Source of the DNA: Candidatus Levyibacteriota bacterium
GTDB taxonomy: Bacteria > Patescibacteriota > Microgenomatia > Levybacterales > UBA12049
Direction: 5' to 3'
DNA length: 64,000 bases
Assembly (NCBI GenBank): GCA_029260905.1
Contig: JAJDCH010000002.1
Location: forward strand, 15,546 to 79,545
The notes under the pieces were generated by a model. It had not been told where the DNA came from. It did not search any database and was given only the letters and a program-made list of their open reading frames with translations. Of the stretch, positions 2,718-62,775 are shown one piece after another (the first letter of the stretch is position 1; each line of letters starts with the position of its first letter). The translations under genes were made by a program, and so were the position numbers.

Positions 2718-4631
2718 ATGGGAAAAATAATAGGCATAGACCTAGGAACAACTAATTCATGTGTAGCCGTGATGGAGGGTGGTTCACCAAAGGTGATTCA
2801 TTCAGCTGAAGGGCGTAATGTCATTCCATCTGTTGTGGATCCTGTAACGCATGTTGTCGGAGATGTTGCCAAGAGACAACTTGTTCTTAAGCCAAAGCAG
2901 ACCGTCTTCTCAATCAAGAGACTGATGGGAAGAAAGTTTAAGGATAAGTCAGTTCAGGAAGACATGAAGTGGCTTCCGTATACTGTTAAAGCAGGAAGAA
3001 ATGACATGGCAGTTGTTGAGGTAGATGGTAAAACCTATACCCCTCAGGAGTTATCCGCTCAAATTCTTCAAAAGATTAAATCTGATGCTGAGAGCTATCT
3101 TGGCGATAAGGTGACTCAAGCTGTTATCACAGTTCCTGCTTATTTTGATGATTCAGAGAGACAAGCTACCAAGCAGGCAGGAGAGATTGCTGGACTTGAA
3201 GTTTTGAGGATTATCAATGAGCCAACAGCAGCAGCTCTTGCCTATGGGCTTGATAAGAAAAATGCGCACACCATTGCTGTTTATGATTTGGGTGGTGGTA
3301 CATTTGATATCTCAATCCTAGAGCTTGGAGAAGGTGTTTATCAGGTAAAATCAACTAATGGTGATACTCATCTTGGCGGAGATGATTTTGACCAGAAGAT
3401 AATTAATTATCTTGCTGAAGAGTTTCTAAAAGAAAATAGCGTGGATTTGAGAAAAGATCCTCAAGCTCTGCAAAGACTAAAAGAATCAGCTGAAAAGGCA
3501 AAGATAGAGCTTTCGAGTTCACAAGAAGCACAAATCAATCAGCCATTTATAACTCAGGGAAAAGACGGTCCCCTTCATTTGACTTTGACTCTTACAAGAT
3601 CCAAGCTTGAACAGATTGTAGATGAACTGATTCAAAATACATTAAAGCCTGTTGAGAAGGCATTAGCAGATGCAAAGATAAAAACAACTGATGTTGATGA
3701 AATAATTATGGTTGGTGGCATGACCCGAATGCCAAAAGTGGTTGAAGCAGTCACGAAATTCTTTGGTAAAGAACCAAATAAGTCAGTAAACCCAGACGAG
3801 GTTGTTGCAATAGGAGCAGCAGTTCAGGGAGGGGTTCTTGGTGGTGAGGTAAAAGATGTACTTCTTTTGGATGTGACACCTTTGACACTTGGGCTTGAGA
3901 CGCTTGGTGCTGTTTCTACACCACTTATTGACAGGAATACAACAATTCCAACTAGTAAGTCACAGGTTTTTTCAACTGCTGCTGATAACCAAACACAAGT
4001 AGAGATAAATGTTTTACAGGGTGAGAGATCAATGGCTGCTGATAACAAGTCTTTGGGACGATTTATTCTTGATGGTATTCCGCCTGCGCCTCGTGGCGTG
4101 CCACAGGTTGAGGTGACTTTTGATATTGATGCCAACGGAATACTAAGCGTTTCTGCAAAAGATAAGGCATCAGGAAAGGAGCAAAGCATTAAGATAACAG
4201 GTAGTACTGGTTTATCAAAAGAAGAAGTTGAAAAAATGACAAAAGATGCTGAGTCCCATGCTAAAGAAGATGAGGAGAAAAAGGGTAAGATTGAGGCCCG
4301 AAATCATGCAGATGCTCTTATTTTTACAGCTGAGAAGTCACTTAAAGATGCAGGGGATAAAGTAGCCGATGATGTTAAAAAAGAAGTTGAAGAAAAGACA
4401 AAAGAATTAAAAGATATTTTGGATAGTGGCACCAAAGAAGACTTGGAAACAAAGACTAATGAGCTTTCAGAAACGCTTCAAAAAATTGGTCAAGCAGCAT
4501 ATCAGCAGGGTCAGAAAGCTCAGGAAGAGCCTGAAATTGAAAGCGAAGAAAAGGAAGGTAAGAAAGATGATTCAGAATCTGAGAAGAAAAAAGATAAAGA
4601 CGAACCTGTTGAGGGAGAAGTGGTAGAATAG
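2718..4631 (+). CDS. dnaK: Molecular chaperone DnaK (Hsp70)
   Basis: N-terminal [21 protein letters not shown] and the Hsp70 substrate-binding domain. An AGGAG Shine-Dalgarno sits 7 nt before the ATG at 2718. Confidence 0.95.
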
Positions 4632-26446: not shown

Positions 26447-28912
26447 ATGACTGAAAGACGAGGAGCACCACGTACTCCGGAACAAGTATTACCCAAAGAA
26501 AATCTTTTGGGTTCTAATCATGCGCTTCAGGCAAGGCTTCTAAATCCGCTTAATCTTGAGGCGGATATGAACGGTACGGATGTGCTCGTAATAGCTGGTG
26601 ATGTCAAAGATCAGGGACTCGGGTTTGCTCTTGGAGAAGAGGGAGCAAGGGTTTATGAAGATGTTTCACTACAACAAAGAGGAAATGATACCCTCAAATT
26701 TAACCAATGGAGAGATAATTTCAACATTAGAATTGCTCAAATCAAAAAAAGAGAGCCTGAAAAGGCTGAATTTTTAGAGCAGATTGGTGTGACAGATGCT
26801 GATAGCTTTTATGATGAGTATCTTTTTGATAGAGAAAATGGAAAGCTCAAATCTGATTTGGTTGGATTTGTTTCAAAAGTAGCTGAGGCTGATGCAGGTT
26901 CTGTTGGAGCAAATGAAGATTTGATAAAAGAGCTTGGAAAGGCTTTTGGTGAGGGGTCAAATGAAGTGATAGTTAATCTGGTACAGGCTGTTAAAAATAT
27001 CCAAATGGGTGCAACAACTTTTGCTCAGTCAGCTGAGATTGATTTGGAAGTTGCAAAAACACATGATCTTATTCAAAGAATTGTTTCAGATAGAAATGAA
27101 TGGAATGCAGGCGGTCAAGATGCTGCAGAGCAGGATCTTCAGGCGTATTTGGCGACTTTGGAAGAAGATGAAGTAGACCAAGGCGGTGATGAGGGTGATG
27201 ATGATTCAGGTCCTGATGATGCTGGGAAAAGACACCAGGCTACGAAAGACAATTCTCAGTCTGATAAGGAAGAAGATGGTGGAGAAGGTGATGAAAGTGG
27301 AGATGGTAAAAATTTACCTGACAAGTTGGTTTGGAGAAGTGGGGGGATAAATGTTCCACCAGATCCGGATAGTAATGGCGAGCCTCCTGATGGTCCTAGT
27401 GGCGGCGTAGAGCCTGATTCGTCTCCTTCAGGAAGCGGTGGAGGATCAGGAGCGGTTGCTGAAGGAGATGGTAGCGGATCTGGAGAAGACAAGATTCCCG
27501 CAGGCACGTTTGGGCCTGGGGATGATGAGTTGGAGTTTGAGTATGATGAGCCAGAACGAGTCAGTCCAGATGTTTCAGATTGGCAGACCATGATTATGCG
27601 AGTCAAGTCAGGATCACTTCCTGATGAGACAAAAGCTAAATTGATAGCGCAAATTAGAGGAAAAATAGCTGAAGAAAGAGCAAATGCCGGTGGAAAACTG
27701 ACAAGCGGCGGAGAGGAGGATGGAGGAAATCCTGAGCCTGTTCAGATAGATAGACCTGCAAGTCCTGCAGTTGAAAGTTTTGTGAATGGAGATGGTTTGG
27801 ACCTAGATGCTGTTTTAGGGGAGATGCGCAGTTCTGCTGCCGAAACTGCAGGTCCAGTAACAGAACCTGATCGCGGGAGCGAAAGTAGTGAGACTGGGAA
27901 AGAGGTTCTTTCTTATGATCCTTTGATACTTAGGGATATCAGAGACAGATTAAGATATTTTAGTGAGGTTTTTCCTCACAAAGAATTTCTTCTTGGCAGG
28001 GATATAGAGTTGGAAGCAGACGTGCTGGATGAGGTGTTAAAGCTTGTAGATCAGGCAGGCAAAATTATTGAATCAAGAAAAGGAGAGGTCGCTGGTTTTG
28101 GGGAGTTTTTTGAGGCATACACAGAACAGGTGGAGCTGGATAAGGATCTGGAATCAGGATTTTGGATCTCAGATGATGGAAATACGAGATATGCATCTGC
28201 AGAGATATACGAACTTAATCAGATGGTACGTGCCAAGGCATATGTTGAGGCAATTGCAAAAGGCTATAAGTCAATACTTGAAGGTCAAGAAAATGGGTCG
28301 TTTGATAGGGAGTTGACAGAAATTTTTTCTAGTTATCTTCCAGCACTTGATGATTTCATGAGGAGTCAGATTGATGGCACTCCTGAGTATGAATCTCAAC
28401 TCGATCTGTCTTATCAAGGGTTTGTTGAAAGGGTTAAAGATCAGATTGAGGGTGTGGACAATCCAGGAGGAAATGTAAAAATTTTGGTAGAGATGCCTGC
28501 GCTTTCTGAATATATAAAAGGCAGATTGCGAAATGGTGAAAGTGTTCAGGATCTTGAGATTATTAGTTTGGGAAAAGACGGTCAAAAGCCATATATAAGA
28601 TTCGTGGTTGTGACAGCTGATGGTAGTGAGGTAAATTACAATATAGTTAACAATAAAGAGAATACAGGGATGGAAATTTATTTTGATCATGAGCTGAATG
28701 GCTCGCTAGACACAGATAATCCCGCAATAACAGAGATTGATGATGATTTAAATGATTATCCAGACGAAAATTATCGAGATTTCGGTGAGGGTTTGGTGCA
28801 TGATCTTGATTTGGCGATTGAAAATCCCAAAATGAGACCAGTTGGAATGATAATAGATACTTATGGTGAGTTGATAATTAAATTTGCAGATAGCGAATTT
28901 ATAGCGATATAA
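26447..28912 (+). CDS. Large acidic hypothetical protein (821 aa) with a G/D/E/S-rich, disordered-looking central region
   Basis: Long clean ORF with no TM helices or recognisable catalytic motifs. The region is more GC-rich than the surrounding sequence. Confidence 0.6.
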   Translation: MTERRGAPRTPEQVLPKENLLGSNHALQARLLNPLNLEADMNGTDVLVIAGDVKDQGLGFALGEEGARVYEDVSLQQRGNDTLKFNQWRDNFNIRIAQIKKREPEKAEFLEQIGVTDADSFYDEYLFDRENGKLKSDLVGFVSKVAEADAGSVGANEDLIKELGKAFGEGSNEVIVNLVQAVKNIQMGATTFAQSAEIDLEVAKTHDLIQRIVSDRNEWNAGGQDAAEQDLQAYLATLEEDEVDQGGDEGDDDSGPDDAGKRHQATKDNSQSDKEEDGGEGDESGDGKNLPDKLVWRSGGINVPPDPDSNGEPPDGPSGGVEPDSSPSGSGGGSGAVAEGDGSGSGEDKIPAGTFGPGDDELEFEYDEPERVSPDVSDWQTMIMRVKSGSLPDETKAKLIAQIRGKIAEERANAGGKLTSGGEEDGGNPEPVQIDRPASPAVESFVNGDGLDLDAVLGEMRSSAAETAGPVTEPDRGSESSETGKEVLSYDPLILRDIRDRLRYFSEVFPHKEFLLGRDIELEADVLDEVLKLVDQAGKIIESRKGEVAGFGEFFEAYTEQVELDKDLESGFWISDDGNTRYASAEIYELNQMVRAKAYVEAIAKGYKSILEGQENGSFDRELTEIFSSYLPALDDFMRSQIDGTPEYESQLDLSYQGFVERVKDQIEGVDNPGGNVKILVEMPALSEYIKGRLRNGESVQDLEIISLGKDGQKPYIRFVVVTADGSEVNYNIVNNKENTGMEIYFDHELNGSLDTDNPAITEIDDDLNDYPDENYRDFGEGLVHDLDLAIENPKMRPVGMIIDTYGELIIKFADSEFIAI

Positions 28913-38553: not shown

Positions 38554-40401
38554 TTATCCGACTTTGGCATATATTCTCCTGAATCCGCGTCCCAAAGCAT
38601 CCTGCTTTATAATTTTAAATGATTTCACCTCTCCTGTAAATTCTACATGAGGTCCTCCACAGAACTCAATAGAATATGATTTTTCAGGGTTTTTGCTGTC
38701 TCCTCCTATAAAGTAGATTTTGGAGCTCTCGCCATATGTATCCATAAAGAGTCCGATTGCTCCTATCTCGTGTGCCTTGTCTGTAGGGATCATTTCAAAA
38801 TGAACAGGGATATTTTCTTTGATTTTTTTATTTACTACTTTTTCAAGCTTGGCTACTTCCTCATCTGTGAGTTTGCGATCAAAGTTAAAATCAAACCTGA
38901 CCCGTTCTGATGTGATATTGGATCCTGATTGGTGCAAATCTGTTCCAAACATATCCCTGAGGGCTGTATGCATAAGATGTGTGGCAGTATGTCCCATGAC
39001 TGTTTGTTTGGAGTGGTCAGCAAGTCCTCCGCGAAATTTTTTCTCAGCGCCTTTTTTGGAAAGATTTTTGTGTTCTTTCATTTTTTCAGCAAATTTTTGC
39101 TGATCAAATGAGTATCCCAGGTTTTTGATCTGTGTGGGTGATAGACCATGGGTTGTATAGATCACAAATGCATCCTCAGCTGAGATTTCTGTATTGCTCA
39201 TGAGCTCATCGCCTTGGTGTTTGTATTTTTTGATTAAAAAGCTTTTTGCCCTTTTTTGGCTATGTGCATATTTTTCTTGTTCTTCAAGTATGGTTCCTTT
39301 TATTTTTTCAAAATTTTCAACTAGATTAGGATCAGTTTGTTTGAATTGATCAACAATAGATTCGATAATATTATCTAAATTTTTACCACCCAGTTTATTG
39401 AAACTATCAACAGATCTTCTTATCAGTCTCCTGAGTATGTATCCCTGCTCTGTGTTTGAGGGATAGACGTTGGCATCAGCTATGAAGACACTTGAAGATA
39501 GGTGAGCTGAAATCATTCTCATTTCGCGTACGTTTTTCTCGTAACTTTTATTAGTTTGTTTTTCAATAGTTGTGATTGTGGGCGCAAAAAGTGATGTAAG
39601 GAAAACATCGGGTTGGTTTTCAGCTGCCATGAGAAGTCTCTCCACACCTGCTCCGTGATCAATGTTTTGTTGGGGTAGATTGGAAAAAGTTCCATTAGGC
39701 TGTTTCTTGTATTGCATAAATACGGTATTGCTGATTTCAAGATACCTTCCGCAATCGCAGTTAATATGGCACAGTGCGTTTTTATATTGGCTATTTTCAT
39801 GAAGCTTTAAGTCCTTGCCAAAATCATAAAATATTTCACTGCTTGGACCTCCTATTTCTCCTTCAGGCATATTTTCTGGAATTCCGGCTCTGGACCACCA
39901 GTTCTTGTGTGCATCATAATGAAAGATTCTGTTTGTAGGATTAAGCCCCACGTTTTCGAAAATTTCAGTCCAAACAGATAAGGCTTCATTATCTTGGGAA
40001 AATTCATTATGACCCCCAAAGATACTCACATAAAGTTTTTCTTGGTTAATACCCAGATCTTTTGTAATATATTCAAAAATCCAAGGCAACTGCTCTTTTT
40101 TAAAGTAATCTCCCAGTGACCAATTTCCAATCATTCGAAAAAAAGTCAAATGGCGATTGTCCCCAACCTCGTTGATGTCATCAAGCGCGCCTTGTCCGCG
40201 GAAAACATTCTGAACGTTTACAAATCTTTTACCCTCGGGATGTTTTTCTCCAGCAAGATAAGGTATTAGTGGTTGCATGCCTGAATTGGTAAAAAGCGTA
40301 GTTGGGTCGTTTTTGGGCACCAGAGGTGAGTTTGGGATTTTTTTATGATCCCTTTTTTCAAAAAATTTAATATATTTATCAACAATATCAAACGCAGTCA
40401 T
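38554..40401 (-). CDS. alaS: Alanine--tRNA ligase, short form with catalytic and editing domains but no C-terminal C-Ala domain
   Basis: FTNSGM, IGNWSLGDYFK and the editing motifs HTATHLMH and CGGPHV. Length is 615 aa. Confidence 0.85.
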   Translation of the reverse strand: MTAFDIVDKYIKFFEKRDHKKIPNSPLVPKNDPTTLFTNSGMQPLIPYLAGEKHPEGKRFVNVQNVFRGQGALDDINEVGDNRHLTFFRMIGNWSLGDYFKKEQLPWIFEYITKDLGINQEKLYVSIFGGHNEFSQDNEALSVWTEIFENVGLNPTNRIFHYDAHKNWWSRAGIPENMPEGEIGGPSSEIFYDFGKDLKLHENSQYKNALCHINCDCGRYLEISNTVFMQYKKQPNGTFSNLPQQNIDHGAGVERLLMAAENQPDVFLTSLFAPTITTIEKQTNKSYEKNVREMRMISAHLSSSVFIADANVYPSNTEQGYILRRLIRRSVDSFNKLGGKNLDNIIESIVDQFKQTDPNLVENFEKIKGTILEEQEKYAHSQKRAKSFLIKKYKHQGDELMSNTEISAEDAFVIYTTHGLSPTQIKNLGYSFDQQKFAEKMKEHKNLSKKGAEKKFRGGLADHSKQTVMGHTATHLMHTALRDMFGTDLHQSGSNITSERVRFDFNFDRKLTDEEVAKLEKVVNKKIKENIPVHFEMIPTDKAHEIGAIGLFMDTYGESSKIYFIGGDSKNPEKSYSIEFCGGPHVEFTGEVKSFKIIKQDALGRGFRRIYAKVG

Positions 40402-54206: not shown

Positions 54207-54233
54207 TTAGCATACAGATTGATCAAGTGATAA
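54207..54233 (+). promoter_or_regulatory. CIRCE-like HrcA operator TTAGCATAC-N9-AAGTGATAA immediately downstream of the groES -10
   Basis: Matches 7/9 in each half against TTAGCACTC-N9-GAGTGCTAA, with a 9-nt spacer. Its position after the -10 is classical, and hrcA is present in the same window. Confidence 0.5.
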
Positions 54234-54261
54234 AACTTGGTTGGTCTATATTTTTTGACTT

Positions 54262-58006: not shown

Positions 58007-58369
58007 ATGCCAATACTAAAACACGCAAAGAAAAAATTAAAACAAGATAAAAAAAGAACTGAAAGAAATAAGCTGGTGAAAGTAGCTTTTAAAAAAGCTG
58101 TTAAAAAAGCACGCGAAACAAAAACCCCAAAGAGTCTTAGCGAGGCATTTAAGGCAATTGACAAGGCAGCAAAGGCAAACATCTTTCATAAAAATAGAGC
58201 AGCAAGAATCAAATCATCTCTTTCAAAATTAGTCGGAAAATCAGCACCAGTTGCAAAAAAAACAGTTCCCGTAACTAAAACAGAAAAAGCAAAGCCTGTC
58301 TCCAAAACAAAAACCGCAAAGATAAAAACTCCTACGAAGAAGAAAGCCTCTCCTAAAAAATCAAAATAA
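58007..58369 (+). CDS. rpsT: 30S ribosomal protein S20 with a K-rich C-terminal extension
   Basis: S20 helical N-terminal region, followed by a lysine-rich tail. Confidence 0.85.
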   Translation: MPILKHAKKKLKQDKKRTERNKLVKVAFKKAVKKARETKTPKSLSEAFKAIDKAAKANIFHKNRAARIKSSLSKLVGKSAPVAKKTVPVTKTEKAKPVSKTKTAKIKTPTKKKASPKKSK

Positions 58370-58422: not shown

Positions 58423-59679
58423 ATGTTTGACATTAAACTAATCCGCGACAATCCTGAGCAAATTCAAAAATCTGCAAAAGATAAGAGAATTGATATTGAT
58501 GTAAAAAAGATTCTTGAAATTGATAAAAAAGAATCTGAGCTTCAGAAAAAAGTTCAATCCCTTCAGGAGAAAAGAAACGCTTTTAATAAGGAAATAAAAG
58601 GCAAGCCGAGTGCTGAGCAGATCGAAAAAGGAAAAAAGATAAGAGAAGAGCTTGTAGCACTAGGGACAGAATTTAACAAAACAAAAGAAGAATTAAACGT
58701 ATTGCTTCTTCAGATTCCAAATCCAGCAAAACCTGATGTAAAGGCGGGAAAAGATGAGTCAGAAAATGATGTTATCCGAAAATGGGGAGAGATTCCTAGG
58801 TTTTCATTCAAACCAAAAGATCATCTAGGGCTTGGAGAGGCGCTTGGAATAATAAATATTGAAAAAGCAGCAAAGGTTTCTGGAACCCGCTTTGCATATC
58901 GGATGGGCGATATGGTTCTTTTGGAGTTGGCGCTTGTTCAGTATTCAATGGATTTTCTGGTCAAGGAAGGATTTATCCCAGTTATCCCACCTGTTCTTGT
59001 CAAAAGAGAGGTAATGCAAGGTCTTGGATATATGGAAAATGGTGGCGAAGAAGACATGTTTCAGTTGAAAGAAGATGGATTGTTTTTGGTCGGAACAGCA
59101 GAGCATTCACTTGTTCCGATGCATAAGGATGAGATTTTGGACATCAAAGACTTGCCAAGACGTTACGTAGGGTATTCGACATCATTTAGAAGAGAGGCTG
59201 GATCATATGGCAAAGATACAAGAGGAATTTTTCGCAATCACCAGTTCAATAAAGTTGAAATGGTTTCATTTGTCGCTGCAGGCGAGGATGACCATGAAAA
59301 TGATTATTTATTGGGACTTGAAGAAAAGATGTTCCAGGAGCTTGAGATTCCCTACCAGGTAATAAAAATGTGTACAGGAGATCTTGGTTTTCCAGCAGCC
59401 CGTAAATATGATATCGAGGCATGGATGCCAGGGCAAGAAAAATATCGCGAAGTTACATCTGTTTCAACTGTTACAGATTTTCAGTCAAGGCGTCTGAACA
59501 TGAAGTATCAAGATGGATCTGAGAAAAAATATTTGCAGGTTTTAAATGGTACAGCTTTTGCAATGTCTAGAACTCCAATTGCGATTCTCGAAAATTATCA
59601 GCAGGAAGATGGCTCAATTGTGATTCCTGAAATTTTGAGAAAATATATGAACAAAGAAAAGATCAGTAATATGAAGTAG
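58423..59679 (+). CDS. serS: Serine--tRNA ligase
   Basis: N-terminal coiled coil and class II aaRS motifs. Confidence 0.95.
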   Translation: MFDIKLIRDNPEQIQKSAKDKRIDIDVKKILEIDKKESELQKKVQSLQEKRNAFNKEIKGKPSAEQIEKGKKIREELVALGTEFNKTKEELNVLLLQIPNPAKPDVKAGKDESENDVIRKWGEIPRFSFKPKDHLGLGEALGIINIEKAAKVSGTRFAYRMGDMVLLELALVQYSMDFLVKEGFIPVIPPVLVKREVMQGLGYMENGGEEDMFQLKEDGLFLVGTAEHSLVPMHKDEILDIKDLPRRYVGYSTSFRREAGSYGKDTRGIFRNHQFNKVEMVSFVAAGEDDHENDYLLGLEEKMFQELEIPYQVIKMCTGDLGFPAARKYDIEAWMPGQEKYREVTSVSTVTDFQSRRLNMKYQDGSEKKYLQVLNGTAFAMSRTPIAILENYQQEDGSIVIPEILRKYMNKEKISNMK

Positions 59680-59842
59680 ACATTAAGAAATGTTTGTGTG
59701 ATTTTTGGCTCCAGATCAATCTAAATCCTCATTTTTGAAGCAGGAAGAATTCTTGACAAGTATTTAATAAAAGAGAGAATATTAAATTGGATTAAGACCC
59801 TCCTATGCATAAAGCCCAGGAGGGCAAAGGGGGTGATTCTCC

Positions 59843-59884
59843 ATGCCAGCAAAGAAAAAAGCCAAAAAAGCTAAAAAAAAGTAA
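59843..59884 (+). CDS. Candidate Lys-rich mini-ORF (MPAKKKAKKAKKK) with a strong Shine-Dalgarno, in the serS-secA intergenic leader-like region
   Basis: AGGGGGTGA SD ends 9 nt upstream of the ATG. 13 codons, 8 of them Lys (AAA/AAG runs). It is followed by an 18-bp palindrome and an intrinsic terminator. Confidence 0.3.
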   Translation: MPAKKKAKKAKKK

Positions 59885-59919
59885 CTTAATAAATATAAAG
59901 CACCAATTGATCAATTGGT

Positions 59920-59955
59920 AAAACCCCTTTTCAGGAATGATGAGGGGTTTTTTTT
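59920..59955 (+). terminator. Rho-independent terminator (AAAACCCCT ... AGGGGTTTT stem plus a T8 run)
   Basis: 9-bp stem with a CCCC/GGGG core and a 14-nt loop, followed by TTTTTTTT at 59948-59955. Confidence 0.6.
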
Positions 59956-60009
59956 GAACCTGAAATGTGCTAGTATGAGATGCAATTGTAATTTTTTACA
60001 GTCAGTAAT

Positions 60010-62775
60010 ATGTTAGGAGTATTAAATAGATTATTTGATAGTAACAACCGTGAGATATCCAAACTTCAGCCAATTGTTGATGAGATAGAGTCTTTTTCAA
60101 AAAAGTTTGAGAAACTGAATGACAGTGATTTCCCCAAAAAAACAGAAGAGTTTAAGAAGAGAATAGCAAAAGGGGAAGATCTGTTTTTGGTTTTACCTGA
60201 AGCTTTTGCATTGACTCGTGAAGCGGCAAGAAGAACCCTTGGGCTTTATCACTATGAAGTTCAACTTATGTCTGCAATAGTTCTTGCTCAAGGTAGAATC
60301 TCTGAACAGAAAACAGGAGAAGGAAAAACTTTATCAGCAGTTCCAGCACTTTATTTACATAGTTTAACAGGAAAAAGCGTTCATCTTGTCACAGTCAATG
60401 ACTACCTAGCACGTCGTGATGCGGGGTGGATGGGTCCTGTTTTTGAACTTTTAGGAGTCAGTGTTTCATCAATAATTAGTGAGCGTTCTTTTATTTATGA
60501 TTCAAAGTTTAAGCAGGAAGATGCATCAGAATATCGTCTTTTACATCTAAAACCAGTAAGTAGAAAAGAAGCATATGATGCTGATGTTGTTTATGGAATT
60601 AACTCTGAGTTTGGTTTTGATTATCTTCGGGATAATATGGCTCAAGACATAAATAGGGTTGCTCAAAGAGGCTATCATTTTGCAATAGTTGACGAAGTAG
60701 ACTCAGTACTTATTGATGAGGCTAGAACGCCGCACATTATTTCTGCACCTGATGAATCTCCTTCTGCCAAATATTTTGAGTATGCAAAGGTCGTTGATAA
60801 GCTAACCCCAGATGTTGATTATAAAATTGATGAAAAGCTAAGAACAGCCCATCTTACAGATCATGGAATAGGAAAAATTGAAAAGCTTTATGGAATCAAT
60901 GATATTTATGAAAAAGATTTTGATACTGTATATCATCTTGAAGCAGCACTGAAGGCGCGTACTCTTTTTAGAAAAGAAAAAGATTATATAGTTAAGGACA
61001 ACCAGGTTATACTCGTTGATGAATTCACAGGACGTTTGATGGAGGGTAGAAGGCTTTCTGATGGAATCCATCAAGCAATTGAAGCGAAAGAAAATGTAAC
61101 TATTCAAAAAGAATCAAAAACACTAGCAACTGTTTCTCTTCAGAATTATTTTAGAATGTATGATGTTCTTGCAGGCATGACAGGAACTGCTGTGACAGAA
61201 GCGCAGGAGTTCAAAAAGATTTATGATCTTGATGTTGTTGTTATTCCAACCAATAATCCGGTTAAGCGTGAAGATTTTCCTGATGCAGTTTACAAAACAG
61301 GCAGAGGTAAGTTGTCAGCAGTTGTAGCTGAAATTGAAAAAGCTCATAAAAAAGGACAACCTGTACTGGTGGGCACTACATCAATTGAGAAAAACGAAAT
61401 AATCGGTCAATCTCTCAAAAGACGAGGGATAAAATTTGAACTTCTTAATGCCAAAAATCATTTGAGAGAGGCTGAAATTATCTCCCAGGCTGGAAGAAGG
61501 GGTGCAATTACTGTTGCGACTAACATGGCAGGAAGAGGAGTTGATATAGTTCTTGGAGGTGAGACACTAAAGAAAAAAGATGGTACTGTAAATAAAAGCT
61601 CAGCTGAGTATAAAAAATGGCAAAAAGAACATGATGAAGTGATAGGGCTTGGTGGGTTATATGTTATAGGAACAGAAAGACATGAATCAAGAAGAATTGA
61701 TAATCAGCTAAGGGGAAGATCGGGTAGGCAAGGGGATCCTGGCGCATCAAAATTTTTTGTATCACTTGATGATGAGATAATGAGACTTTTTGGCGGGGAC
61801 AGGATAGCAGGTCTTATGAGTAGATTTAATATGCCTGAGGATGTACCGCTTGAACACGGACTGGTCTCTAAATCAATTGAAAATGCGCAAACAAAAGTTG
61901 AGGGATTTTATTTTGATCAGAGAAAACACGAAGTTGAGTATGATGATGTGCTGAATAAGCAAAGAGAGATTATTTACTCGCTCAGAAGAAAAGCGCTTGA
62001 ATCAACAATTGATGGTGGGTCAAAATTAAAAGAGGAAATACTTGATAGGTTGCACGATCAAATATCAGATTTTGTTAATATGATACCTGCTGATGTAGCC
62101 ACAAGAACAGGAGGCGCTGATTCTGTAAATGAAAAAATTATTGAAAATTTTGTTGCTATAGTTCCATTTGATCCAGCATCCCAAAAGCAACTGGTAAAAC
62201 AGCTGGAGCAGATTCATACAACAGATGAAAAAAAGGAGTTTCTCGATAAGCTGATTGATGATTTGTATAAAAAACGGGAACAGGATTTGACAGAAAAAGT
62301 AATGCGACAGATTGAGAAATTTGTAATGTTAACAGTAATTGATAATCTCTGGATGAATCATCTGGATGCTATGACAAACCTTAGGGGAGGCATAGGGCTT
62401 CGTGGATATGCACAGAAAGATCCGTTGGTTGAGTATAAAAATGATGGATTTAGCATGTTTGAGAAATTAATGGCAAGTATAAATGACGAGATTGTCAGGA
62501 GAATCTTTAGGGTACAAGTGCAAGAACAGACTCACACACACGCTGATGGATCAGTTCACACAGGGCCTATGCATTCTCCCACAGATTTAGGAAAAGCTGC
62601 TTCGCCTCTTGCAAATGCAGTTACAAATACGCCAGCAAGTGAGGTTTCAGAAGATGTCAAAAAGCCTGTTATTTCGGCTAAAAAAACGCAAAATAAATTA
62701 AGCCGAAATGACCCATGTTGGTGCGGCTCGGGAAAGAAATGGAAGAAATGCCATTATCCGGCAACTGGTGAGTAA
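60010..62775 (+). CDS. secA: Preprotein translocase ATPase SecA
   Basis: DEAD-like motor domains, a preprotein cross-linking domain and a C-terminal zinc-binding tail (CWCGSGKKWKKCH). Confidence 0.95.
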   Translation: MLGVLNRLFDSNNREISKLQPIVDEIESFSKKFEKLNDSDFPKKTEEFKKRIAKGEDLFLVLPEAFALTREAARRTLGLYHYEVQLMSAIVLAQGRISEQKTGEGKTLSAVPALYLHSLTGKSVHLVTVNDYLARRDAGWMGPVFELLGVSVSSIISERSFIYDSKFKQEDASEYRLLHLKPVSRKEAYDADVVYGINSEFGFDYLRDNMAQDINRVAQRGYHFAIVDEVDSVLIDEARTPHIISAPDESPSAKYFEYAKVVDKLTPDVDYKIDEKLRTAHLTDHGIGKIEKLYGINDIYEKDFDTVYHLEAALKARTLFRKEKDYIVKDNQVILVDEFTGRLMEGRRLSDGIHQAIEAKENVTIQKESKTLATVSLQNYFRMYDVLAGMTGTAVTEAQEFKKIYDLDVVVIPTNNPVKREDFPDAVYKTGRGKLSAVVAEIEKAHKKGQPVLVGTTSIEKNEIIGQSLKRRGIKFELLNAKNHLREAEIISQAGRRGAITVATNMAGRGVDIVLGGETLKKKDGTVNKSSAEYKKWQKEHDEVIGLGGLYVIGTERHESRRIDNQLRGRSGRQGDPGASKFFVSLDDEIMRLFGGDRIAGLMSRFNMPEDVPLEHGLVSKSIENAQTKVEGFYFDQRKHEVEYDDVLNKQREIIYSLRRKALESTIDGGSKLKEEILDRLHDQISDFVNMIPADVATRTGGADSVNEKIIENFVAIVPFDPASQKQLVKQLEQIHTTDEKKEFLDKLIDDLYKKREQDLTEKVMRQIEKFVMLTVIDNLWMNHLDAMTNLRGGIGLRGYAQKDPLVEYKNDGFSMFEKLMASINDEIVRRIFRVQVQEQTHTHADGSVHTGPMHSPTDLGKAASPLANAVTNTPASEVSEDVKKPVISAKKTQNKLSRNDPCWCGSGKKWKKCHYPATGE

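Follow-up and report, generated by a model that had tools for sequence, protein, structure and literature searches.

What is encoded between serS and secA in the uncultured candidate phyla radiation bacterium Candidatus Levyibacteriota represented by contig JAJDCH010000002.1: a leader that regulates secA, or a gene in its own right? The question is raised by the 330-nucleotide serS–secA spacer in a 64-kb stretch of this contig (hereafter the window), in which a 5′ hairpin, a strong Shine–Dalgarno (SD) sequence followed by a lysine-rich mini open reading frame (ORF), a perfect 18-bp palindrome and an intrinsic terminator succeed one another ahead of secA. These four features had been described in the original prediction, which offered as possible readings a leader-peptide attenuator of secA, a monitoring peptide by analogy to secM–secA, or simply the serS terminator with a fortuitous mini-ORF; all four were found to be present by reading of the sequence and by a repeat scan. 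Comparison with related genomes points to another answer, to which we assign a probability of roughly two in three: the spacer probably harbors a stand-alone micro-gene, located in the ancestral serS–secA spacer of a Levybacteria/Microgenomates clade, that encodes an oligolysine peptide and is not a leader of secA.

Relatives were gathered in two ways, namely as SecA homologues and as exact matches to the palindrome in metagenome contigs, the second route being biased to the palindrome. About 50 related uncultured Microgenomates/Levybacteria genomes, with SecA proteins 60–76% identical to that of the window, carry the same module between serS and secA. Conservation of the mini-ORF and its SD, on which the original prediction had left the matter to hang, was examined in these relatives and was found to hold: because the SD, the ATG, the lysine-rich ORF, the palindrome and the terminator recur in the approximately 50 related loci, the micro-ORF is not fortuitous and is very probably translated. 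The exact palindrome was found in 67 metagenome loci, 42 of which are module loci, nearly all with serS upstream (45–75% identical) and secA downstream (60–75%), and the remaining matches are chance occurrences inside unrelated genes. No contig has more than one copy, and this also applies to those of 863 kb and 384 kb. An unbiased sample of 13 relatives was composed of SecA-homologue loci picked regardless of the palindrome, together with L001 and L005. The module is present in 10 of these 13, and 8 of the 10 carriers have the 18-nucleotide element, either exactly or as ACCAACTGATCAATTGGT, ACCACTTGATCAATTGGT or ACCAATTGATCGATTGGT; L153 and L154 retain the promoter, SD and ORF and lack the element. 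In L005, whose SecA is 60% identical, the order is AAGGAGGTGA, an ATG opening the ORF MAKKKKKKRR, a hairpin, the identical 18-bp palindrome, a terminator, TGCTACAAT and secA. In both L005 and L122, serS is replaced by another upstream gene and the module is kept. As read from this comparison, the transcription and translation signals, the composition of the ORF and the gene order are all conserved.

The module of the window begins with a predicted promoter on the plus strand (59753–59781), overlooked by the original prediction, which was detected by a promoter scan with 10 of 12 matches and consists of a −35 TTGACA at 59753–59758 and a −10 GAGAAT at 59775–59780, separated by 16 nucleotides. 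It is positioned upstream of the 5′ hairpin and would start transcription at approximately 59787. A promoter of the form TTGACA-17 nt-CAnnAT occupies a fixed upstream place in 43 of 43 distinct loci, and the 5′ untranslated region (UTR) that follows it varies in length from 25 to approximately 150 nucleotides. Further upstream, an A/T-rich block, AATCTAAA-N7-TTTTGAAGCA (59718–59742, plus strand), is conserved in the alignment of the unbiased relatives and could be an UP element, which it resembles, or an activator site. The exact TTTTGAAGCA occurs once in the window, and neither it nor the pattern TGARGCY-N7-TGnTAnnAT, considered as general promoter features of the genome, is enriched elsewhere in the window.

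Downstream of this promoter, an extended SD, AAGGGGGTGAT, is located at 59827–59837 on the plus strand, 5 nucleotides ahead of the ATG at 59843, which opens the micro-ORF MPAKKKAKKAKKK; together with its stop codon, this ORF spans 59843–59884 (plus strand) and comprises 13 codons, nine of them for lysine, with the product (M)PAKKKAKKAKKK. The SD of the relatives is AAGGAGGTGAT(C), in which GGTG and its flanking bases are invariant and which is complementary to as many as 12 nucleotides of the canonical 16S rRNA 3′ tail, a length reached in L157. In every locus, AAGGAGGTGAT is followed by 5–8 nucleotides and then by ATG-GCA or ATG-CCA. A longer ORF of 38 codons (59805–59921) was rejected as a candidate, as it overlaps the variable 5′ hairpin and is devoid of conservation.

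The relatives yielded 36 distinct homologous ORFs of 9–51 codons, each closed by an in-frame stop, and the 51-codon version is annotated as a gene in its own record. Over the 542 positions of these ORFs, lysine accounts for 58%, alanine for 15% and threonine for 7.5%, followed by valine, arginine and proline, and not a single aspartate, glutamate or aromatic residue was found. Arginine is sometimes encoded by CGA or CGC, which breaks the purine run and keeps the charge. The slippery A-runs from which the mini-ORF had been said to be built are not a conserved feature: the longest A-run is 8 nucleotides in the window and mostly 5–6 nucleotides in the relatives, and AAG is preferred over AAA, representing 58% of the lysine codons in the ORFs as compared with 33% in the genes of the window. 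The window and L153, with SecA proteins 73% identical, encode an identical peptide in ORFs that differ by one synonymous nucleotide. Since the composition remains constant while the length ranges from 9 to 51 codons, selection appears to act on the charge of the peptide rather than on regulatory codons. This pattern lends good support to selection on the ORF for a short peptide dominated by lysine and free of acidic residues.

The SD of the micro-ORF stands out against its surroundings. SD usage was sampled over the 64 kb of the window, not the whole genome: an SD-like sequence of even 4 nucleotides precedes only 9 of the 43 ORFs, and no long SD match other than AAGGGGGTGAT lies in intergenic DNA. 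In 24 of the 43 ORFs, a TAnnnT sequence, often with an upstream TG, ends 4–12 nucleotides before the start codon, a pattern that suggests widespread leaderless or very short-leader mRNAs. Examples of a −10 near the start are found at rpsT (58007; TGGTAAAAT, 6 nucleotides, ATG), at serS (58423), at 26447 and, on the minus strand, at 38554. Within this sample, the micro-ORF reads as the one clearly SD-led gene.

At its 3′ side, the module is closed by an intrinsic terminator at 59920–59955 (plus strand), composed of a C-rich 5′ arm and a G-rich 3′ arm (AAAACCCCTT..GAGGGGTTTT) and a T8 run, which is the strongest hairpin-plus-T-run in the window; the fold of the palindrome together with the terminator has a z-score of −3.85. 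A consensus terminator scan did not pick up this hairpin, probably because its rules are unfit for a long, interrupted stem. Among the relatives the terminator stems covary, with compensatory changes in five of eight pairs. All 38 module terminators examined are C-first; considered as a possible mark of pairing with the SD, this is taken to carry no information, as they are homologous to each other and other terminators were too few for a control. The predicted terminator ends the transcript of the micro-gene, and it probably also ends read-through from serS, which has no terminator of its own before the micro-gene promoter.

Beyond the terminator, secA has a predicted promoter of its own. The candidate in the window is an extended −10, TGCTAGTAT (59968–59976, plus strand), which sits 33 nucleotides upstream of the secA ATG, in a position homologous to that of the TGnTAAAAT of the relatives; a second −10-like sequence, TACAGT (59997–60002, plus strand), ends 7 nucleotides before that ATG. 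An extended −10 is found after the terminator and before secA in nearly all loci. In about 20 loci (L085, L087, L090, L100, L101, L104, L105, L107, L109, L110, L120, L121, L123, L125, L133, L138 and others), TGnTAAAAT ends 6–7 nucleotides ahead of the secA start codon; as a leaderless mRNA would have this spacing, secA is predicted to be leaderless in these loci. The module can also be separated from secA: another gene lies between them in L155, and approximately 440 nucleotides of other DNA do so in L099. Three relatives, L001, L156 and L158, have serS and secA without the module. L001 has retained GAGGGGTTTTTTTTGA, which matches the window terminator exactly in its 3′ arm and tail, and this apparent 3′ half suggests a secondary loss of the module by deletion. 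The secA promoter is kept as TTGAGGCTG-N-TGnTAnnAT in all three (L001, approximately 2940–3000; L156, 1930–2000; L158, 1960–2000). In L113, L116, L129 and L133, and on the minus strand in L094, a palindromic, GC-rich sequence, GCCTGCCTGCCGGCAGGCAGG, is inserted between the terminator of the module and the promoter of secA; it looks like a small repeat of the REP (repetitive extragenic palindromic) or MITE (miniature inverted-repeat transposable element) type.

These observations can be assembled into the following model of an independent micro-gene. A consensus-type promoter, comprising the UP-like block, TTGACA and the −10, would start a transcript of approximately 170 nucleotides, on which a 5′ hairpin (in this lineage) and then a near-perfect SD would recruit 30S subunits. 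The ribosome would synthesize the 13-residue oligolysine peptide, or peptides of 9–51 residues in the relatives, and the strong intrinsic terminator that follows the conserved 18-nucleotide element would end the transcript and shield secA, the transcription of which would be driven by a separate extended −10 promoter shortly downstream. Several signals together suggest high expression: the −35 matches the consensus, an UP-like block precedes it, the SD is perfect, a 5′ hairpin is present and no terminator in the window is stronger. We infer that the peptide is the functional product and acts as a polycation that binds ribosomes, rRNA or DNA.

Several points weigh against this model. The transcription start, the efficiency of termination and the accumulation of the peptide are all predictions from sequence. 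In the shortest ORFs, slippage alone could suffice to maintain the frame of a purine-rich triplet repeat, and nine residues make a very small peptide for specific binding. In nearly every genome the module adjoins secA, even in L005 and L122, in which serS is replaced, and this leaves room for a functional link to secA. Folding in silico with the 5′UTR included allows the C-rich 5′ arm of the terminator to pair with the G-run of the SD, although a translation-dependent effect on termination is unlikely. Finally, the micro-gene account leaves the role of the 18-nucleotide element unexplained.

That element is the perfect 18-bp palindrome ACCAATTGATCAATTGGT (59902–59919, plus strand), which abuts the terminator stem. 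Its consensus in the relatives is ACCAAyTGATCrATTGGT, and in the window it is unique even with three mismatches allowed (0.05 occurrences expected). Relatives found independently of the palindrome have the variants ACCAACTG.., ACCACTTG.. and ..GATCGATTGGT. The seven pairs of the palindrome hairpin are essentially invariant (one mismatch in 22 sequences), and the distance from the element to the terminator stem is always 0–6 nucleotides. In many relatives, the stop codon is directly followed by UUGG(U), which pairs with ACCAA in the 5′ half of the element to form what we term hairpin X, the inner stems of which are variable and covarying (CCGCC/GGCGG, AUGUUU/AAACAU, UCCCGC/GCGGGA, CCGUC/GACGG and others; at least six different stems). 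The element therefore joins two exclusive helices, hairpin X or its own self-hairpin, designated Y; in the minimum-free-energy folds of L104 and L152, hairpin X is chosen and UGAUCAAUUGGUAA is left unpaired. Since the stop codon is where hairpin X begins, the self-hairpin would be favored by a terminating ribosome, and in the relatives the ribosome could in this way switch the element from the one helix to the other. The upstream UUGG is absent from the window, so that only the self-hairpin is possible there, stacked on the terminator. In L153, which encodes the identical peptide and has no 18-nucleotide element, the terminator hairpin (1833–1862) is AACCCCTCACC-TGATCA-GGTGAGGGGTT, with a UGAUCA loop centered on the same GATC as the palindrome. 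The element is best read as a 3′-UTR RNA element, and its invariance beyond the needs of pairing suggests that it is recognized by a protein, as RNA or as DNA.

Some other roles for the palindrome were considered and rejected. It is not a replication origin, terminus or dif site: the GC skew stays positive throughout the window and does not switch at 59.9 kb, serS and secA are co-oriented, and the palindrome has no resemblance to what we take to be the consensus of the Xer dif core. It is not a positioned, class I-type activator site for secA, as the distance from its center to the secA −10 ranges from 46 to 125 nucleotides and is neither fixed nor helically phased. An antisense promoter within the palindrome was likewise set aside: the minus strand of the window has a weak TTACCA-18-TATATT, and no conserved −10 was seen by eye at this place in the relatives inspected.

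The strength of the SD and the conservation of the 3′ element raise the prospect that the functional product is the RNA, small or dual-function, with the SD holding the 30S subunit (so as to titrate the anti-SD or stabilize the RNA), the 3′ element binding a protein or RNA and the peptide arising as a by-product. Complementarity of the SD far beyond the needs of translation, up to the 12 nucleotides of L157, is in keeping with this proposal, as are the conservation of the 3′ element next to terminator stems that drift, the covariation of hairpin X with its many inner stems, the single-nucleotide difference between the ORFs of the window and L153 despite SecA proteins only 73% identical, and the small-RNA-like size and architecture of the unit. 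We nevertheless give it only a low probability, as the spacing of the ATG, the in-frame stop and the basic, acid-free composition over 9–51 codons, non-purine codons included, would be hard to maintain without selection on a peptide. Moreover, the 3′ element is absent in L153 and L154, which keep the promoter, SD and ORF; no match was found in Rfam; and a search of the rest of the window for a target of the 3′ element gave none beyond chance.

Of similarly low probability is a more specific proposal made by analogy, in which the peptide would be an abundant ribosome-bound factor, a free-standing basic tail at or near the 16S 3′ end, whose mRNA, alone in having a full-length SD, would be read preferentially by peptide-free ribosomes in an autoregulation like that of rpsU, with the 3′-UTR element as a second control point switched by the terminating ribosome. 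If it were true, such a loop would account for the retention of the anti-SD in a lineage where translation otherwise starts on leaderless or SD-less mRNAs.

The palindrome could instead be a DNA operator for a dimeric regulator of secA or of the micro-gene, or a transcription roadblock, although we hold this to be improbable. A perfect palindrome that is nearly invariant across genomes whose SecA proteins are only 60–76% identical, that occurs once per contig even on those of 863 kb and 384 kb, and whose variants are one-sided (ACCAAC, ACCACT), a pattern that half-sites would produce and a hairpin would not, would suit an operator. A DNA site is at odds with the variable distance to the secA −10 (46–125 nucleotides) next to a constant 0–6 nucleotides from the terminator stem, with the absence of a regulator gene as conserved neighbor and with the place of the variable positions, which fall at the base of hairpin X, a covarying RNA structure. 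In addition, the L159 variant gives a U-G wobble, tolerated by an RNA helix, and L153 retains only the GATC-centered loop, on a different stem.

The attenuator originally proposed, in which the progress of a ribosome through the lysine codons would set the formation of the terminator and hence the transcription of secA, is slightly less probable again. The conserved order of SD, short lysine-rich ORF, terminator and secA is that of an attenuator, and in many relatives ribosome position could alter the RNA structure, since one strand is common to the palindrome hairpin and to hairpin X, which starts at the stop codon. Its essential component, an antiterminator, was sought by folding the RNA from the start codon to the T-run in 38 loci with the terminator forbidden. 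Blocking the terminator costs a median of 16.8 kcal/mol, while re-pairing of its 5′ arm in the ORF or 3′UTR gains a median of only 1.6 kcal/mol (1.4 in the window), so that the modeling of alternative folds did not bear the proposal out: no antiterminator that competes with the terminator was found among the 38 loci, and hairpins X and Y both lie off the terminator stem. The pairing of the SD G-run with the terminator 5′ arm, seen when the 5′UTR is included, would favor an attenuator and is a consequence of base composition. The window itself lacks hairpin X, secA is unconnected to lysine and the ORF spans 9–51 codons. The mini-ORF has its own promoter in 43 of 43 loci, secA has a conserved predicted promoter of its own after the terminator, often placed for a leaderless mRNA, and the module is separable from secA.

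Poly-lysine and poly(A) tracts can perturb elongation, the latter through ribosome sliding, and the position of the ORF directly upstream of secA gave grounds for the analogy to SecM, according to which a poly-lysine arrest would report the status of secretion or of the ribosome and up-regulate secA. The analogy fails and is very improbable: the 36 peptides of 9–51 residues contain no hydrophobic segment, signal peptide, transmembrane segment or arrest motif of the RAPP or SecM type; extended A-runs lack conservation; the ORF is separated from secA by a terminator and a further, predicted promoter; and an arrested ribosome would find no SD at secA to unmask.

The notion of an ordinary serS terminator with a chance mini-ORF, scarcely tenable as a whole, stands in so far as serS has no other terminator and the 59920–59955 hairpin probably ends its transcripts, and falls with respect to the mini-ORF, as the promoter, SD, ATG and ORF composition are conserved in the approximately 50 loci, also where the upstream gene is not serS (L005, L122).

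The 5′ hairpin does not belong to the core of the unit. In the window its arms, CCCTCCT (59798–59804) and AGGAGGG (59818–59824, plus strand), were confirmed by the repeat scan, so that the 7-bp inverted repeat of the original prediction does exist; it carries no weight beyond chance, with 21 inverted repeats of at least 7 nucleotides in the same 401 nucleotides. The whole 5′UTR folds at −20 kcal/mol, with a z-score of −1.3 against shuffled sequences. A hairpin before the SD is found in many loci with unrelated stem sequences and is absent in five (L094, L128, L152, L154 and L155); the window type is shared with L149 and, with changed pairs, with L148. This hairpin is specific to the lineage and not a universal part of the module, and it is probably a stabilizer of the mRNA 5′ end. 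Loci with long 5′UTRs (L148, 1610–1640; L149, 1715–1745; L134) have an extra common block, AGGAGGCYTTGCC..CCGAAGCCC, upstream of the SD-proximal hairpin, and the hairpin loop of the window, GCAUAAAGCCC, resembles the loops of L148 and L149 (GCUAAAGCU, GCUAAAACU); the block and the likeness of the loops may represent a further conserved 5′UTR element.

The flanking genes are both on the plus strand and readily identified: serS, the upstream neighbor, encodes serine–tRNA ligase (58423–59679; NCBIfam TIGR00414, 465.7 bits), and secA, the downstream neighbor (60010–62775; NCBIfam NF009538, 1056 bits), has no SD. The window has a G+C content of 39%. Among species-representative genomes, the closest SecA is 70% identical and belongs to a Candidatus Levyibacteriota metagenome-assembled genome, followed by other Microgenomates; in a large protein collection the nearest is 75–76% identical. 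No transfer RNA or transfer-messenger RNA was found in the window by a scan for these genes, and no RNA detectable with Rfam was present. The repeat scan also revealed an exact 11-nucleotide direct repeat, TCAGTAATATG, at the end of serS (59663–59673) and across the secA start codon (60002–60012), which is probably due to chance. The ribosomal protein S20 encoded upstream (rpsT, 58007–58369) has 120 residues, as compared with approximately 84 positions in the family model, and its C-terminal tail (...KKTVPVTKTEKAKPVSKTKTAKIKTPTKKKASPKKSK) is rich in lysine, threonine, proline and alanine, a composition like that of the long micro-ORF variants. Upstream of groEL, a 13-bp AT-rich hairpin followed by a T-run (54216–54247) contains TTGATCAAGTGATAA, which bears a loose likeness to the 3′ half of the 18-nucleotide element, with two mismatches.

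Searches for relatives of the product returned little. The 51-residue variant gave sub-threshold matches to Pfam HC2 (E = 0.0034, 17.9 bits against a cut-off of 40) and NCBIfam NF038052 (15 bits against 135); the 20–28 residue variants matched nothing in Pfam or NCBIfam, and no variant matched any ribosomal-protein family in these searches. The 51-residue variant had no relative in a search of 5.8 billion proteins, and an exact look-up of four peptide variants in a collection of 15 billion proteins found none present. At the gathering score, Rfam had no match in the window or in eight related loci, and with E up to 10 the spacer matched terminator look-alikes only (rimP, 21 bits against 47; PyrG leader, 21 against 65). 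A literature search on lysine-rich small proteins, leaderless and SD usage, and bS21 in Patescibacteria found no description of the element.

ORFs this short are missed by gene callers and protein databases, yet the sequence of the unit bears all the hallmarks of a gene that is heavily expressed and under selection, and does so throughout a broad uncultured clade. Should the peptide be functional, an oligolysine of 9–13 residues would, to our knowledge, be among the shortest conserved bacterial gene products, and it would constitute a genetically encoded polycation, possibly a new class of product, in organisms with minimal biosynthesis. The micro-gene also offers a concrete handle on why the anti-SD is kept in SD-poor, largely leaderless-looking lineages, a question that, as far as we know, has so far been addressed experimentally only in Bacteroidia. 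For the annotation of such loci, the lesson is that an SD, a mini-ORF and a terminator ahead of a gene are by themselves no indication of attenuation.

How the module relates to known systems can be stated for each in turn. With the leader-peptide attenuators trpL, hisL and pheL it shares an SD, a short ORF rich in one amino acid, an intrinsic terminator and a downstream gene on the same strand; it differs in having no antiterminator that overlaps the terminator, a conserved promoter between the terminator and secA, a downstream gene unrelated to lysine, and an ORF with a dedicated promoter and a length of 9–51 codons. Monitoring substrates are encoded upstream of protein-export genes, as in SecM–secA, MifM–yidC2, VemP–secDF2 and the RAPP-type arrest peptides (PMC12992588). 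The likeness to these is confined to a small ORF immediately upstream of a sec gene, whereas the module peptides have no export signal, membrane anchor or arrest motif, a terminator and a predicted promoter uncouple their transcription from that of secA, and there is no secA SD to unmask. H1-like proteins (Hc2 and the Burkholderia H1-like family) have similar low-complexity repeats of the AKK/KKT type, but the module peptides are 4–20 times shorter, the matches are compositional only and the short forms have none.

The gene for a very small polybasic protein is of a kind already known from bTHX, bS22, bL37 and eL41, which resemble the module in product size (9–51 residues here), extreme lysine and arginine content and signals for high expression; the module peptides have no detectable similarity to any of them, and their length and sequence are far more variable than would be expected for a fixed rRNA pocket. 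What is new is the extreme brevity and low complexity of the product, its place as the only SD-led gene in an SD-poor stretch and the conserved 3′-UTR element. The closest parallel in logic is provided by the Flavobacteriia, in which the ribosomes are SD-blind and the strong-SD gene rpsU encodes bS21, a protein that masks the anti-SD, resulting in autoregulation (PMC9976891, PMC13000453, PMC7797042). Both cases combine an SD-poor genome with a single gene for a small, very basic protein that is preceded by an extended SD able to pair with most of the 16S 3′ tail; the product of the module has no similarity to bS21, and the analogy is one of logic, not of family.

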